Shown here: one piece after another, positions 39,387 through 54,435 of the stretch
Layout of the letters: each line of letters starts with the position of its first letter
Numbering within the stretch: the stretch's first letter is position 1
Assembly: GCF_000027125.1 (NCBI RefSeq)
Contig: NC_017626.1
Reading direction: 5' to 3' (one strand)
Length of the DNA stretch: 64,000 nt
DNA from: Escherichia coli 042
GTDB lineage: Bacteria > Pseudomonadota > Gammaproteobacteria > Enterobacterales > Enterobacteriaceae
Position numbers and translations under genes: made by a program
The notes under the pieces: model-generated
Databases searched by the model: none
Seen by the model: the letters and a program-made list of their open reading frames with translations, nothing else
Told to the model about the DNA's origin: nothing

Positions 39387-39412
<26 letters not shown>

Positions 39413-40115
39413 GATGCCAGCGCAGCAAGTTTGCCATCGCAAAGATATATTTTTCGCTGGCTTCGTCGGAGGAGATGGGCGGAAACTCTGCGGTGATGCA
39501 ATGCAGGTTGAGATCCGCACACCAACTACCGAAAGAGCCAGGCGTTTCATAACCGACGCTGGTTACCAGAGGCAATTCAAACGCCTGGGCCAGCCATTCA
39601 CCTAATTCGCTGTGTCTGGGATCTTCAATACAGGCCAGCGGATCGTGGAATGAGACCACCCAGGCAGGTTGAATGCGGTGTATAAGCTGGCACAGCGCCT
39701 GGGTTTCAGGTTCGGAGCCAGGTTTGTCACCTGTCAGCAATACGACATCACGTTCTTCAGCGGCGCTGTTCCAGCGATAAACGGTTTCACCTTCCTTCCA
39801 GTTCGCCGCCGGAAAGTTTCTGTTTAAATCCACACCATTAGCATTGGCCCGTAACCCCAACTGGCAGCCGTCAGGATTCACACACAGCACCACATGATGA
39901 CGGCGCAAAGAAGGTGTCAACGTCCGCAGAGCACAGGAGAGCGTGACGACCGAAGAGTTTTCATCACCGTGAGTGCCAGCCAGAATCAAACCACTTTCGC
40001 GGCTGGCTGCAGGGGCAGGAAACCAGATTAACGGCGCGCCCAATAATGAACGTCCGTAATGTTCTGTTCCGGGCGGAAATGCGCCGCGTTCGGCGCGTGG
40101 GCGAGTTACGGTCAT
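39387..40115 (-). CDS. mpaA: Murein peptide amidase A (zinc carboxypeptidase family)
   Basis: 242 aa from MTVTRPRAERGAFPPG...; convergent with ycjG and overlapping its 3' end. Confidence 0.88.
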
Positions 40116-40405
40116 GATCGTCTCTGGTTCAGGAAGTATTACAGGCAGTGTTGTGCAAATTTTGCGGATTATCAAATCCTTTTCTTCAACGCTATGTCAT
40201 CGATCTTGTATCACTTTTTTGCCGGAAGTTGTTTGCATTTTCATTGATGTGCAGATATTAGAATTGTCGTAATGTTATATACATGGCGTATTTTATTCTT
40301 ACTGGTTCTACACATGTTAATCGCATCTGATTGATCAGTTCACCTTAATAAGTTTAATAAATCGTACTGCACATAGTACAGTACGATGGTAGCTATATAA
40401 TTGAT

Positions 40406-41044
40406 TTACATGAAGAATGGCTTATCGCCATCAGTCCCGGGTTGATTGATGCCTATATTCTCACCAATGTGTTTCTCAGGTTTATCGATGATATCTGTAA
40501 TTAATGCTGCGACACTCTTACGTGATACGATCGTACCTTTGAATGGTTCATTGCGTGAGGTAAGCTCATAATCAATAATATCTTCATCAGTCAGCCAGGC
40601 AGGGCGAAGAATTGTATATTCCAGTCCAGAAGCCTCAATTGCATCCGCAGCCCTGCGGAATGGTTTTAGGGGCTCACCAATAACTGCATTATTCCATTCG
40701 CCAAATTTTCCTGGAACTTCATCATAAATACCGAGGGAAAGAACAAAGATCAGACGTTTAACATCACAGGCTTTCATCGCAGCGATCACTGAATTTGCCT
40801 GAATATCTAAATCTTCCCCCGTAAGGTTGGCATACACAACATCCTGTCCCTGCATGGCCTGCTTCAGTGCTGCATGATTCAGTACATCCCCCATAATAAT
40901 CTTGCTATTAGTTGGATAGGGTTTGTGGATTTTTGCTGGCTGACGGGCAAATAAAGTTTGTTTAATGGTTTGTTTATCTGCCAGTTGATTAATCACATGG
41001 CGGGCTATCTGACCGCCAGCACCAAGAATCAGTACATTTTTCAT
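40406..41044 (-). CDS. ymjC: NAD(P)-binding (NmrA/SDR-like) protein, apparently intact
   Basis: 212-aa ORF with N-terminal Rossmann motif (ILGAGGQIARHV); assigned by position between mpaA and ycjY. Confidence 0.7.
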   Translation of the reverse strand: MKNVLILGAGGQIARHVINQLADKQTIKQTLFARQPAKIHKPYPTNSKIIMGDVLNHAALKQAMQGQDVVYANLTGEDLDIQANSVIAAMKACDVKRLIFVLSLGIYDEVPGKFGEWNNAVIGEPLKPFRRAADAIEASGLEYTILRPAWLTDEDIIDYELTSRNEPFKGTIVSRKSVAALITDIIDKPEKHIGENIGINQPGTDGDKPFFM

Positions 41045-41114
41045 GAAACTTTTCCCAGATTATTGGCAGCAATATGCCAGGCCATATCACTATTACGGAT
41101 TTGAATATGTTTCA

Positions 41115-42047
41115 TTACAGAGTTTCCTCAAAGAACGGCGCTAATACTGAAATTGCTTCAGCCACATAGACTTTGCCGTCATAAAGAACCATATGGTTTG
41201 CGCCTTCAACAATGTGATAGCGTTTATCCTGGCTTGATGCTCGATCGTACAGGTCGTCACTCATCCATTTGCTCCCTGCCTGGCTGCCCGCCACAATCTG
41301 TATCGGCTGAGTCAGGTACACTTCCGCCATATGGTAAGCATCATAGGTAATAATCTGGTTAAGGCTGCGCAAAGTAGCGTAACCCGGTGCTGTTGGATAC
41401 TGCGCGCGAGGGGTGTGGTAATACTCCCAGGCCTGACGCAGTTCTTCGTTCGGCGCATCGGACTCCTTCATTGGTGCCAGTGGCATGGTGGCGTATTCTC
41501 CGCTGCTAATATCGCTGGTTCGGGCGTTTGAACCCGCGTCAACGTATGGTAGGGCATCAATAGATTTCACATTGTTTTCCCAACCATTACGGAACATCGA
41601 ACCAATATTGACCGCACTAACAGTACCGATGGCCTTGATGCGGCGATCCTGAATTGCAGCATTGGCTGTATATCCTGCACCGGCACAAATTCCCATCGCA
41701 CCAATTCGGCTATTGTCGACATAAGAAAGCGTTGTCAGATAATCAATCACGGCACTGACGTCTTCAGTACGAATGTATGGGTTTTCTAACTGACGCGGCT
41801 CGCCGCCGCTTTCACCTTGATAAGATGCGTCATAAGCAATAGTGACAAATCCCTTTTCCGCCAGTTTTTCGGCATAGGTTCCAGCCGTTTGCTCTTTAAC
41901 GCCCCCACCTGGGTGAGATACCACAATTGCCGGATACTGACGGGTTTCATCAAATTTTGGAGGGAAATAGATCACTGCAGACAAAGAGATGGTTGGATTA
42001 TTGCTGTTAGTGAAGCTGACTTTATTATTCATCATTCCGTTCCTCAT
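41115..42047 (-). CDS. ycjY: Alpha/beta hydrolase
   Basis: 310-aa ORF (true start may be a few codons downstream); nucleophile-elbow-like GICAGAG. Confidence 0.85.
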   Translation of the reverse strand: MRNGMMNNKVSFTNSNNPTISLSAVIYFPPKFDETRQYPAIVVSHPGGGVKEQTAGTYAEKLAEKGFVTIAYDASYQGESGGEPRQLENPYIRTEDVSAVIDYLTTLSYVDNSRIGAMGICAGAGYTANAAIQDRRIKAIGTVSAVNIGSMFRNGWENNVKSIDALPYVDAGSNARTSDISSGEYATMPLAPMKESDAPNEELRQAWEYYHTPRAQYPTAPGYATLRSLNQIITYDAYHMAEVYLTQPIQIVAGSQAGSKWMSDDLYDRASSQDKRYHIVEGANHMVLYDGKVYVAEAISVLAPFFEETL

Positions 42048-42172
42048 GGAGTTGTCGGTTCGTTTTAACGGTTGGTGATATCACTATAGATATTGATCAT
42101 TAAGTTGATTAGACCCAAAATCATGATTAGACCTATCATTTAAATGATTAATAGATTGTATGGAGATACTGA

Positions 42173-43072
42173 ATGAAGCGTGAAGAAATCGCTGATCTGA
42201 TGGCGTTTGTCGTCGTTGCAGAGGAGCGTAGCTTCACTCGCGCAGCAGCCCGCCTGAGCATGGCGCAGTCAGCTTTAAGCCAGATAGTGCGCCGTATAGA
42301 AGAACGATTGGGATTGCGGCTTCTGACACGAACCACGCGCAGCGTTGTACCCACTGAAGCGGGCGAGCATCTTTTGTCTGTTCTTGGCCCTATGTTGCAT
42401 GACATAGATTCTGCCCTGACATCCCTGAGCGATCTGCAGAACCGCCCATCCGGGACAATACGTATTACTACTGTAGAACATGCAGCAAAAACGATATTGT
42501 TACCAGCTATGCGCACATTCCTGAAATCGCATCCTGAAATTGATATCCAGCTTACCATTGATTATGGTTTGACCGATGTCGTTTCTGAACGTTTTGATGC
42601 AGGCGTCCGTCTGGGTGGGGAGATGGATAAAGATATGATCGCCATTCGAATCGGGCCAGATATACCAATGGCTATTGTTGGCTCACCGGATTATTTTTCT
42701 CGTCGAAGTGCTCCAACGTCAGTGTCACAATTAATAGATCATCAGGCAATTAATTTGTATCTTCCCACATCGGGTACAGCAAATCGCTGGAGATTAATAC
42801 GCGGTGGACGTGAAGTTCGTGTTCGCATGGAAGGTCAGCTTTTACTGAATACGATAGACCTGATCATTGATGCTGCAATTGATGGGCATGGATTGGCGTA
42901 TCTACCTTATGATCAGGTTGAGCGGGCTATTAAAGAAAAAAAACTGATACGTGTTTTGGATAAATTCACACCAGATTTACCCGGTTATCACCTGTACTAT
43001 CCACACCGTCGACATGCTGGCTCGGCATTCTCATTATTTATAGATAGGCTGAAGTATAAAGGTGCTGTTTAG
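42173..43072 (+). CDS. pgrR: LysR-type regulator PgrR (YcjZ)
   Basis: 299 aa; LysR HTH (FTRAAARLSMAQSALSQIVRRIE), divergent from ycjY. Confidence 0.9.
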   Translation: MKREEIADLMAFVVVAEERSFTRAAARLSMAQSALSQIVRRIEERLGLRLLTRTTRSVVPTEAGEHLLSVLGPMLHDIDSALTSLSDLQNRPSGTIRITTVEHAAKTILLPAMRTFLKSHPEIDIQLTIDYGLTDVVSERFDAGVRLGGEMDKDMIAIRIGPDIPMAIVGSPDYFSRRSAPTSVSQLIDHQAINLYLPTSGTANRWRLIRGGREVRVRMEGQLLLNTIDLIIDAAIDGHGLAYLPYDQVERAIKEKKLIRVLDKFTPDLPGYHLYYPHRRHAGSAFSLFIDRLKYKGAV

Positions 43073-43408
43073 CACTACTTGCTGATACATTAATTTAATT
43101 CTTCTCTTAACGTATTCTCAGTTCCTTTCAACGTTTTGGTCATTTTTTATTCTTCGTACAATGGCGACAGATGCTGATTATGATACCGAAAACGGGTTTG
43201 AACGTGCGAAGCCCGAACGTAGTGTTCGGAGTTCTATGTGCTTTACCGCATTTTGGAGACTATTATTTACACTAAATCTGATTTGATATATTGATACTTA
43301 AAACATTTGATGCTTCCTTTGTCACTTTTTTGATGGAAGTTGTTTGCATTTCTTTAAGGCGAAACAAATAATTACGCATCAATTTTAATGTCGGTTAGAG
43401 GGAAACTT

Positions 43409-45022
43409 ATGAAGCACTCTGTTTCAGTCACGTGTTGTGCGCTGTTGGTCAGCAGCATTTCTCTTTCGTATGCTGCAGAAGTTCCGAGCGGCACAGTACT
43501 GGCAGAGAAGCAGGAGCTGGTGCGCCACATTAAAGATGAGCCTGCGTCGCTGGATCCCGCTAAAGCCGTGGGCCTGCCAGAGATTCAGGTCATTCGCGAT
43601 CTGTTTGAAGGACTGGTGAATCAGAACGAGAAAGGGGAGATTGTCCCCGGCGTTGCGACTCAGTGGAAAAGTAATGACAACCGTATCTGGACATTTACCT
43701 TGCGCGATAACGCAAAATGGGCGGATGGCACACCGGTAACGGCGCAAGATTTTGTCTACAGCTGGCAACGTCTGGTGGCCCCAAAAACATTGTCGCCATT
43801 TGCATGGTTTGCCGCGCTGGCGGGAATCAACAACGCACAGGCGATTATTGATGGTAAAGCCACGCCTGACCAGCTTGGCGTCACCGCAGTTGATGCCCAT
43901 ACTTTGAAAATCCAGCTTGATAAACCGTTGCCGTGGTTTGTGAATTTAACCGCTAACTTTGCCTTCTTCCCGGTGCAAAAAGCCAACGTAGAAAGTAGTA
44001 AAGAGTGGACGAAACCCGGAAAACTGATCGGTAATGGCGCTTATGTTCTTAAAGAGCGCGTAGTCAATGAAAAACTGGTCGTGGTACCGAATACCCATTA
44101 TTGGGATAACGCCAAAACGGTGCTGCAAAAAGTGACCTTCCTGCCAATTAATCAGGAATCCGCAGCCACTAAGCGTTATCTCGCGGGGGATATTGATATC
44201 ACCGAATCCTTCCCGAAAAATATGTATCAGAAGCTGTTGAAGGATATTCCGGGGCAGGTTTATACGCCGCCGCAGCTCGGGACCTATTATTATGCGTTTA
44301 ACACGCAAAAAGGGCCGACGGCCGATCAGCGTGTTCGCCTGGCATTAAGTATGACGATAGATCGCCGCCTGATGACCGAAAAAGTGTTGGGGACGGGGGA
44401 AAAGCCAGCGTGGCATTTTACACCAGATGTTACTGCCGGTTTTACGCCGGAGCCTTCGCCGTTTGAACAAATGAGTCAGGAAGAACTGAATGCGCAGGCA
44501 AAAACTTTGTTGAGCGCAGCTGGTTATGGTCCGCAAAAACCGCTGAAGCTGACGCTTTTGTATAACACTTCAGAAAACCATCAAAAAATTGCGATTGCTG
44601 TAGCATCGATGTGGAAAAAGAACCTTGGCGTAGATGTTAAATTGCAGAATCAGGAATGGAAAACCTATATCGATAGCCGTAACACCGGCAATTTTGATGT
44701 TATCCGCGCCTCATGGGTAGGGGATTATAATGAACCCTCCACTTTCCTTACGTTGTTAACGTCAACGCATTCAGGGAATATTTCACGCTTTAACAATCCG
44801 GCATACGACAAAGTACTGGCCCAGGCATCAACGGAAAATACCGTTAAAGCGCGTAATGCCGATTACAATGCGGCAGAAAAAATCCTCATGGAGCAAGCAC
44901 CGATTGCACCAATTTATCAATATACCAATGGACGATTAATCAAGCCGTGGCTGAGAGGTTATCCCATTAATAACCCGGAAGATGTGGCGTACAGTCGGAC
45001 TATGTATATTGTGAAGCATTGA
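43409..45022 (+). CDS. mppA: Periplasmic murein tripeptide-binding protein
   Basis: 537 aa from MKHSVSVTCCALLVSSISLSYA; OppA-like family 5 SBP. Confidence 0.92.
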   Translation: MKHSVSVTCCALLVSSISLSYAAEVPSGTVLAEKQELVRHIKDEPASLDPAKAVGLPEIQVIRDLFEGLVNQNEKGEIVPGVATQWKSNDNRIWTFTLRDNAKWADGTPVTAQDFVYSWQRLVAPKTLSPFAWFAALAGINNAQAIIDGKATPDQLGVTAVDAHTLKIQLDKPLPWFVNLTANFAFFPVQKANVESSKEWTKPGKLIGNGAYVLKERVVNEKLVVVPNTHYWDNAKTVLQKVTFLPINQESAATKRYLAGDIDITESFPKNMYQKLLKDIPGQVYTPPQLGTYYYAFNTQKGPTADQRVRLALSMTIDRRLMTEKVLGTGEKPAWHFTPDVTAGFTPEPSPFEQMSQEELNAQAKTLLSAAGYGPQKPLKLTLLYNTSENHQKIAIAVASMWKKNLGVDVKLQNQEWKTYIDSRNTGNFDVIRASWVGDYNEPSTFLTLLTSTHSGNISRFNNPAYDKVLAQASTENTVKARNADYNAAEKILMEQAPIAPIYQYTNGRLIKPWLRGYPINNPEDVAYSRTMYIVKH

Positions 45023-46641: not shown

Positions 46642-47320
46642 CAAATGCGCCTATAAGGCTCTCTTACCAGCCGCGCCCTAACAGGCGCACACGATCTGAC
46701 ATTTGCATCCAACTTCGTTACTTACGGCCCGTAAACGGGCTGCCCGGATAGGGAATCGATAACTGCTCTCCCATTTTATCCTCTTCAAGCTGGTGCTTTA
46801 TGTAATCCTGTATCTTCGCCGTGTTCTTACCCACCGTATCGACGTAATACCCTCTGCACCAGAACTCCCTGTTCCTGTATTTGAATTTCAAATCACCAAA
46901 CTGCTCGTAAAGCATCAGACTGCTTTTCCCTTTCAGATATCCCATAAAGCCTGATACGCTCATTTTGGGCGGGATCTCCACAAGCATATGGATATGATCT
47001 GCACAGCATTCAGCTTCCAGAATCCGTACACTTTTCCACTCACACAGCTTTCTCAAAATACAGCCTATTGCTCTACGCTTCTCTCTGTAGAACACCTGTC
47101 TTCGGTATTTTGGCGCAAATACTATGTGATATTTACAGTTCCATCGGGTGTGCGCTAAGCTCTTTTCGTTCCCCATTGGGACCCCCTTTTGATTTCTTGT
47201 TTGACACTTGCAGTTGCCAGACCGCAAGGTGTTTTAACAAATCAAAAGGGGTTTTAATAACTGGCTCAAAGCTGAAAGCTTTCCGGAACCCCCAGCCTAG
47301 CTGGGGGTTTTCTGTGCACA
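46640..47320 (-). mobile_element. IS200-family (IS200/IS605) insertion sequence; boundaries approximate
   Basis: Contains an IS200-type tnpA; left-end hairpins on the IS strand (cccccagctaggctggggg at 47290-47308 and an RBS-sequestering inverted repeat ccccttttgattt / aaatcaaaagggg); lies between the ynaJ and uspE terminators. Confidence 0.8.
46718..47176 (-). CDS. tnpA: IS200-type Y1 (HUH) transposase TnpA
   Basis: 152 aa from MGNEKSLAHTRWNCKYHIVFAPKYRR...; HUH motif (ADHIHML) and catalytic Tyr region (RGYYVDTVG). Confidence 0.9.
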   Translation of the reverse strand: MGNEKSLAHTRWNCKYHIVFAPKYRRQVFYREKRRAIGCILRKLCEWKSVRILEAECCADHIHMLVEIPPKMSVSGFMGYLKGKSSLMLYEQFGDLKFKYRNREFWCRGYYVDTVGKNTAKIQDYIKHQLEEDKMGEQLSIPYPGSPFTGRK

Positions 47321-54260: not shown

Positions 54261-54435
54261 AACCTTTCCCGTCATCAGTAAAAAGTGTGACCCGGTTCAC
54301 GTAGCGATAGTTTTTACTTATCACTAACTGATTTTTCACAGTTTTAACCGTTCATAAATTACCCTGACACAATCATCTGCATTAAAGTAGATGCCAGTTT
54401 CTTTGGTCTGATAAATAACGGTTATCGGTGGCGTC

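Follow-up and report, generated by a model that had tools for sequence, protein, structure and literature searches.

The 30-bp box that stands upstream of both mpaA and mppA in Escherichia coli 042 is very probably a junction duplication, which arose when foreign DNA was inserted into the divergent promoter region shared by the two genes. All positions given below, unless another record is named, refer to the window, that is the whole stretch of 64,000 nucleotides of contig NC_017626.1 that was analysed. The comparison of genomes establishes that the ancestral spacer had a single copy, where exactly the junctions lie, that the insert is foreign and mobile and that precise empty sites exist within E. 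coli; the event itself is an ordinary insertion scar with a regulatory twist.

Box A (TCACTTTTTTGCCGGAAGTTGTTTGCATTT, positions 40211-40240) lies 96-125 nt upstream of the annotated ATG of mpaA (40115, minus strand), the gene of murein tripeptide amidase (39387-40115, minus strand), and box B (TCACTTTTTTGATGGAAGTTGTTTGCATTT, positions 43322-43351) lies 58-87 nt upstream of the ATG of mppA (43409), the gene of the murein tripeptide binding protein (43409-45022, plus strand). They form direct repeats whose starts are separated by 3,111 bp and are identical at 28 of 30 positions, with the two mismatches side by side (GCCGG in box A and GATGG in box B, the latter being the derived dinucleotide change). 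The sequences and coordinates reported in the first-pass annotation were confirmed exactly, and its approximate distances were right. The similarity reaches 7 nt further to the left in a weaker form, giving 37 nt at 86 %, while the right edge is sharp after GCATTT. The stretch immediately left of box A (40204-40210), with its weak resemblance to 43315-43321 (4 of 7 positions), is probably the degraded outer part of an original duplication of ~34-37 bp. With up to 3 mismatches allowed, boxes A and B were the only sites in the 64-kb window, and the same search in 100 dinucleotide-preserving shuffles gave none; among 5,419 complete E. coli genomes, the box was found at a median of 2 and a maximum of 4 places per genome. 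A dispersed repeat family (REP/BIME, ERIC and the like), which the first-pass annotation had named as a finding that would refute its reading, is rejected on these copy numbers in the window and per genome. No internal inverted repeat or dyad symmetry was listed by the repeat searches in 40211-40240 or 43322-43351, and Rfam at a permissive threshold returned nothing at the boxes, its sole hit being a sub-threshold RAGATH-10 inside pgrR.

The origin of the two copies is visible in the relatives of E. coli. An MpaA-anchored scan of the genome collection yielded 80 loci, in each of which the neighbouring genes and the box-like sequences were mapped. The genes mpaA and mppA are divergent neighbours in about 70 other Enterobacteriaceae species, with a gap of 182-190 bp in most of them; these taxa comprise E. 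albertii, E. whittamii and three further Escherichia lineages, as well as Citrobacter, Enterobacter, Leclercia, Lelliottia, Kluyvera, Kosakonia, Raoultella, Pluralibacter and Trabulsiella. Every adjacent-pair spacer similar enough to be scored contains exactly one box, at a constant offset from mpaA, so that the search in other Enterobacteriaceae suggested by the first-pass annotation found the box in these genera as a single copy in the mpaA-mppA spacer. The sister taxa have an intact single-copy target site and no insert. In the window, the 125 bp of 40116-40240 and the 57 bp of 43352-43408 add up to 182 bp, which is exactly the length of the empty site. Compared base by base, the mpaA-side junction tracks the empty site as far as 40240 and diverges completely beyond it, and the mppA-side junction tracks it from mppA leftwards to about 43322; in Escherichia sp. 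E1V33 (locus L006) the left and right junction matches overlap by 34 bp.

Read from these alignments, the boxes are one ancestral spacer segment that would have been duplicated when foreign DNA was inserted between mpaA and mppA. Box A and box B are alike because both descend from this one segment, and they are oppositely oriented relative to mpaA and mppA, as had been noted at the first reading, because the single ancestral box lay between divergent genes. The divergence between the copies, at two positions of 30, is no lower than the orthologous divergence of the adjacent spacer; being not below the neutral expectation, the likeness need not be attributed to selection. The first-pass annotation had taken the shared box for a cis-element indicating co-regulation of the two genes by a common factor. 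The box does consist of cis-regulatory promoter DNA, as set out below, but its likeness reflects duplication rather than independent occurrences of a motif, and co-regulation by a common factor is not supported by two copies that derive from one duplicated ancestral segment.

Other lineages have also acquired DNA in the mpaA-mppA spacer. In Salmonella enterica subsp. arizonae (locus L025, 7449-9677), a different insert of ~3.2 kb takes the place of the mppA-proximal part of the spacer, with no duplication of the box; it carries the gene of a B subunit of cytolethal distending toxin (NF011787, 378.9 bits) between two ORFs that lack an NCBIfam match and may be cdtA and cdtC. The equivalent spacer of S. 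enterica subsp. diarizonae (L026) holds ~3.4 kb. At locus L061 (811-10000), an insertion of 9.2 kb occupies the middle of the spacer, where conservation is poor, and no long junction duplication was found; the record bears the label Citrobacter sp., and its spacer is matched most closely by that of Pluralibacter sp. (L063). The insertions of E. coli, Salmonella and L061 are three independent events. In a further record (L003, NZ_CP169309.1, 5850-6000), a lambdoid prophage with a tail-fibre gene and cor abuts mppA and replaces its 5' end, so that MppA has an altered N-terminal signal-peptide region and the upstream region, box B included, is absent.

The insert between the boxes (40241-43321; 3,081 bp) is a decayed copy of an insert of 3,960 bp. 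Its GC content is 44.0 % versus 52.1 % in the left flank and falls to 32-36 % in the non-coding ends. The full form is seen in E. coli 33F4, where pgrR is divergent from hydrolase-1 (ycjY), followed by hydrolase-2 and an SDR gene; it comprises a four-gene module of 3.6 kb with 94 bp and 248 bp of orphan donor flank. In the window, the SDR/NmrA-type oxidoreductase gene ymjC (40406-41044, minus strand) is intact, in contrast to its truncated state in K-12; the deletion scar at 41045-41057 marks the loss of 892 bp, including the second alpha/beta-hydrolase gene (hydrolase-2), which is retained in E. coli 33F4, the Klebsiella plasmids and Rhizobium; ycjY, the alpha/beta hydrolase gene designated hydrolase-1, occupies 41115-42035 on the minus strand; and pgrR (ycjZ), encoding a LysR-type regulator, lies divergent from ycjY at 42173-43072 on the plus strand as part of the acquired module. 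Another deletion, of 665 bp and common to K-12 and Escherichia sp. E1V33, removed the first part of the insert (window 40241-40906; L095 4539-4676 in K-12). Its breakpoints, which show TTGC microhomology, lie 1-2 bp beyond the right edge of box A and within the SDR gene; ymjC is a pseudogene in K-12 because of this deletion.

The same four-gene module, with 79 % DNA identity, was found on conjugative IncF plasmids of Klebsiella aerogenes, K. variicola and K. pneumoniae, where it forms a discrete 3.6-kb unit in two unrelated contexts that is 91.6 % identical between them. On a Rhizobium replicon (a 216,610-bp record, plasmid of Rhizobium tropici CIAT 899), the module adjoins IS21, three tyrosine recombinase genes and IS66, and it occurs in yet other contexts in Pluralibacter and two metagenomic genomes. 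The cargo is therefore found on mobile replicons and in unrelated surroundings, and is of atypical composition. The YcjY protein shares 84 % identity with a protein of Pluralibacter and 81-85 % with proteins from Rhizobiales, Sphingobium and Burkholderia, these latter relatives being alpha/beta hydrolases of Rhizobium, Mesorhizobium, Agrobacterium, Sphingobium and Burkholderia; such an identity is unusually high across proteobacterial classes and, at the level of protein comparison, indicates a wide horizontal spread of the module. The pgrR gene arrived within the insert.

The ends of the insert point to a piece of donor DNA rather than to the termini of an element. For the orphan AT-rich right end (43074-43321, 35.5 % GC), no homology to the copies of the module elsewhere was found, and within it, at about 43170-43244, PGAP annotates in the 33F4 insert an internal fragment of ~25 codons of queH (epoxyqueuosine reductase); the segment is probably a relic of the donor's flanking gene. 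Among the closest YcjY homologues (84-89 %), whose genes stand near nuo genes, an RND pump or glyoxalase/GSHPx, none adjoins queH. No flanking repeats were detected around the module on the Klebsiella plasmids, no box-like sequence with up to 8 mismatches was detected at the plasmid or other module loci, and no terminal inverted repeats, transposase, or integrase/recombinase were detected in the E. coli insert, in which the only annotated genes between the boxes are those of the SDR, one or two hydrolases and pgrR. Thus, the insert looks like a chunk of donor DNA and not like a self-contained element. The target-site duplication of an IS or transposon was considered and rejected: with 30-37 bp, the duplication is longer than any standard transposition mechanism yields, and neither terminal inverted repeats nor a transposase accompany it. 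As recombinase and transposon features are absent, the original insertion was probably an illegitimate integration.

Within E. coli, the insert has been lost again. The reconstructed empty-site query gave one uninterrupted match in 174 of 5,418 E. coli genomes, so that the module is polymorphic for presence and absence, with precise empty sites. Four empty sites were inspected, each of a different flank haplotype; three have a chimeric box, which joins the flank of box A to the GATGG specific to box B, and one has GCCGG. In CP131_Sichuan, one of the chimeric three, the flanks of the empty site match K-12 with 0 mismatches over 1,100 bp on either side, against 12-37 differences in unrelated lineages; the site is therefore a precise deletion of very recent date, and the crossover fell within the leftmost 11 bp of the box. 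For the GCCGG-type empty site, no filled genome with a matching flank was found (the best reached 98.5 %), and this type may represent an old loss or a lineage that was never filled, so that not every empty site need be an excision. The occurrence of both GATGG and GCCGG suggests a variable crossover point, though the GCCGG type was perhaps never filled. In one empty-site E. coli genome (H60, NZ_CP148034.1, 4257916-4259842) the empty-site query matches in two pieces, with an IS1 family transposase annotated beneath. A separate mobile element was noted in the window itself at about 46700-47200 (L001 10339-10797), where an IS200C transposase gene stands between ynaJ and uspE; it is not annotated in the other loci that cover this interval.

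The segment that was duplicated is promoter DNA, most directly so on the side of mpaA. Two K-12 datasets place a transcription start of mpaA at NC_000913 1388705, minus strand (PMC3415461 supplement; PMC3923258 supplement). The values beside it, 20 and 37, are presumably read counts, and in PMC3923258 the start is given as a transcription unit of its own with sigma-factor entries D/S, on our interpretation of the columns. This start corresponds to window position 40198 (minus strand), so that box A spans -13 to -42, and the printed 51-nt sequence from -50 to +1 contains the box. The invariant TCA of the box reads as TGA on the mpaA strand and gives a TG at -15/-14 (40212-40213), which, in our own reading of the sequence, would form an extended -10 arrangement together with TACAAG (40205-40210), the putative -10 hexamer of mpaA. 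This hexamer is moderately conserved across the genera, and the K-12 start may not be the main mpaA promoter in every genus. Box A also carries what appears to be a relic of the mppA -35 element (TTGCAT, 40233-40238), which now has insert DNA on its 3' side.

Another mpaA promoter, read as TTGATA-17-AACACT on the reverse complement at 40147-40175, was rejected as unsupported by the mapped start; the conserved block at that place sits in the 5' UTR. This nearly invariant block of ~40 bp (40141-40180) has a majority fraction of 0.83-0.96 over 73 spacers, is thus better conserved than the box, lies downstream of the mapped mpaA start and, on the mpaA strand, contains two short palindromes, GGATT-TGAT-AATCC and GCAAA-A-TTTGC; its role may be that of an operator or of a second promoter. 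At its other end, mpaA is convergent with ycjG, the 3' ends overlapping by 26 bp (39387-39412); a published RNA-seq survey counts ycjG-mpaA among the convergent excludons and mpaA-ycjG-tpx among the non-contiguous operons (PMC12288877).

On the side of mppA, the promoter is predicted from TTGCAT (43344-43349) in box B, a 17-nt spacer and a nearly invariant AATAAT (43367-43372), and box B additionally contributes the T-tract upstream of the -35 element; a consensus scan also placed a sigma-70-like site (TTTGCA, 18 nt, AATAAT) overlapping box B. At this predicted promoter, no transcription start is recorded in the two K-12 datasets, where the sole start assigned to mppA is weak (value 6) and lies inside pgrR (PMC3415461, PMC3923258), and PMC2760140 has no start entry for these genes. 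A sigma-54 promoter with TTGCA as the -12 element was rejected by eye: the -24 GG that it needs would fall in the variable middle of the box and one base off register.

Conservation of the box was measured in an alignment of 73 distinct ancestral spacers, in which the mean majority fraction is 0.80 for the box versus 0.67 and 0.68 for its neighbours. The ends of the box are essentially invariant, with TCA at spacer positions 96-98 in 72 of 73 and TTGC at 118-121 in 73 of 73; variation is free in the middle (spacer positions 107-110), the part that distinguishes the two E. coli copies. On the ancestral spacer, some 70 bp would separate the mapped start of mpaA from the predicted start of mppA on the other strand, and the box would be the upstream region that they have in common. 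The description of the box as the overlap of two back-to-back divergent promoters seems largely right, the mppA promoter being the predicted member of the pair, and the suggestion of a divergent promoter module in the first-pass annotation is near the mark, box A lying at -13 to -42 of a mapped start and box B containing the predicted mppA -35. Neither the -35 nor the TG elements account for an invariant AAG (111-113) and a T-tract TTT (101-103) inside the box, which may belong to a site bound by a factor.

That reading has its strongest competitor in an operator of a conserved transcription factor co-regulating mpaA and mppA, with selection for binding keeping the copies alike, which we consider possible but unlikely. 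The better conservation of the box over its surroundings argues for it, as do the invariant AAG and TTT, which are not obviously parts of a -10 or -35 hexamer, and the position of mpaA and mppA as ancestrally divergent neighbours acting in one pathway; however, descent fully accounts for the likeness of the copies, at two differences in 30, the repeat searches gave no internal dyad symmetry, the genome has just two copies, and one E. coli genome (L002) carries a mutation within the TTGCAT of box A. Two specific regulators were also weighed. PgrR, which the first-pass annotation had named as a candidate, is located by published genomic SELEX at the ycjY/pgrR spacer and at neither box, according to the summary in PMC5934670; it is rejected on these data together with the evolutionary order, since the gene came with the insert and the box is older, predating pgrR in every genus examined. 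As for CRP, a ChIP-seq table lists the site CGTGAACCGGGTCACA under ycjZ/mppA (PMC4287617). The perfect match of this sequence in the window is at 54286-54301, 11 kb from mppA, which means that the stored text of the table has shifted rows or that the site is mislabelled; with the listed site so remote and no CRP-like site of up to 2 mismatches in or beside either box, a CRP operator was rejected as well.

Explanations that give the insert itself a different history or role fare worse. The boxes might be attL and attR of a small integrative element, recombined site-specifically in trans with the box as the core site, and the exact bracketing of the insert by direct repeats, the precise empty sites in 174 genomes, the three tyrosine recombinase genes beside the Rhizobium module and the independent hits of other inserts on the same spacer in Salmonella and L061 would be in keeping with this; but the E. 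coli insert neither contains nor adjoins an integrase or recombinase gene, the module has no box-like flank on plasmids or in other genomes at up to 8 mismatches, the orphan ends with the queH fragment fit a random donor chunk better than the terminus of an element, the crossover point would not be fixed if the GATGG and GCCGG empties are both excisions, and the other inserts of the spacer lack a comparable duplication, all of which makes an att origin very improbable. Slightly less remote, though still improbable in our estimate, is a role of the boxes as a reversible gain/loss switch for the PgrR module, with precise excision and possibly re-integration of the excised circle by way of the same 30 bp; if this were true, populations would continually yield PgrR-free cells with the ancestral back-to-back mpaA/mppA promoters, and the control of murein-peptide catabolism would vary at the population level. 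The least credible of all is that the filled two-box state is ancestral to Escherichia and that its sister species owe their single boxes to repeated precise deletion. Such deletions are indeed documented in E. coli, but independent precise losses would be needed in every other sampled Escherichia species, the single box of all the other genera would be left unexplained, the cassette is of low GC and plasmid-borne elsewhere, and the copies, differing at only two of 30 positions, are not older than the divergence between species.

According to the preferred reading, a junction duplication at the insertion of foreign DNA, the ancestor of E. coli would have had mpaA and mppA as divergent neighbours with a 182-bp spacer and back-to-back promoters overlapping in about 30 bp. 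Into this spacer, ~4 kb of foreign DNA would have been inserted, consisting of the plasmid-borne LysR/hydrolase/hydrolase/SDR module and a few hundred bp of donor flank, with the doubling of about 30-37 bp of the target at the junctions. Positions 1-125 of the spacer would have stayed with mpaA, among them the stretch from -13 to -42 of its promoter, and positions 96-182 with mppA, among them the -35 element and the upstream T-tract, so that both genes would have been left with complete promoters after the insertion; we infer that the duplication survived since both promoters were preserved. Box B would then be the working upstream half of the mppA promoter, and box A the working upstream part of the mpaA promoter along with a dead copy of the mppA -35. 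Being direct repeats, the two copies would serve as substrates for a homology-dependent deletion that takes the cassette out precisely and brings the ancestral spacer back.

Among the known systems, the locus comes close to genomic islets with direct repeats, as it has foreign low-GC plasmid-related cargo that is missing in the sister species, polymorphic within the species, bracketed by direct repeats of recipient sequence and precisely deleted through them. It is unlike them in having no integrase and no tRNA or tmRNA target, in insert ends made of orphan donor flank, and in a repeat that is the shared core of two divergent promoters and not an att core. The ancestral arrangement resembles other back-to-back divergent sigma-70 promoters, with starts about 70 bp apart and upstream regions sharing ~30 bp; in E. 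coli, however, the core is duplicated and the promoters stand 3-4 kb apart, and of the two starts that of mpaA alone is mapped. With the target-site duplications of transposons and IS elements it has in common the direct duplication of the target at both ends of the insert, in contrast to which its 30-37 bp exceed the typical 2-14 bp and terminal inverted repeats and a transposase are missing. The PgrR (YcjZ) regulon of E. coli K-12 was reportedly described by Shimada et al. in 2013, and it concerns the same locus, but the box lies outside the reported SELEX sites, is older than pgrR and is found in genera that lack pgrR. Control by PgrR has been reported for ycjY-ymjD-ymjC-mpaA and ycjG, as given in the summary of PMC5934670; most simply, the native target of PgrR is its own divergent hydrolase operon.

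Events of this kind are ordinary, and the specific case appears to be undescribed in the searchable literature. A conspicuous repeat in a well-studied locus of E. coli is explained by it with no new regulator. PgrR is accordingly to be viewed as part of a recently acquired, plasmid-borne LysR-hydrolase-SDR module that landed between mpaA and mppA and is decaying differently by strain, as seen in K-12, the window and 33F4. About 3 % of the complete E. coli genomes searched are without the module and may serve as natural controls for the effects of PgrR on mpaA and mppA, one empty-site strain matching K-12 exactly over 2.2 kb of compared flanks. The locus also suggests that an insertion into overlapping divergent promoters can be tolerable when their shared core is duplicated.
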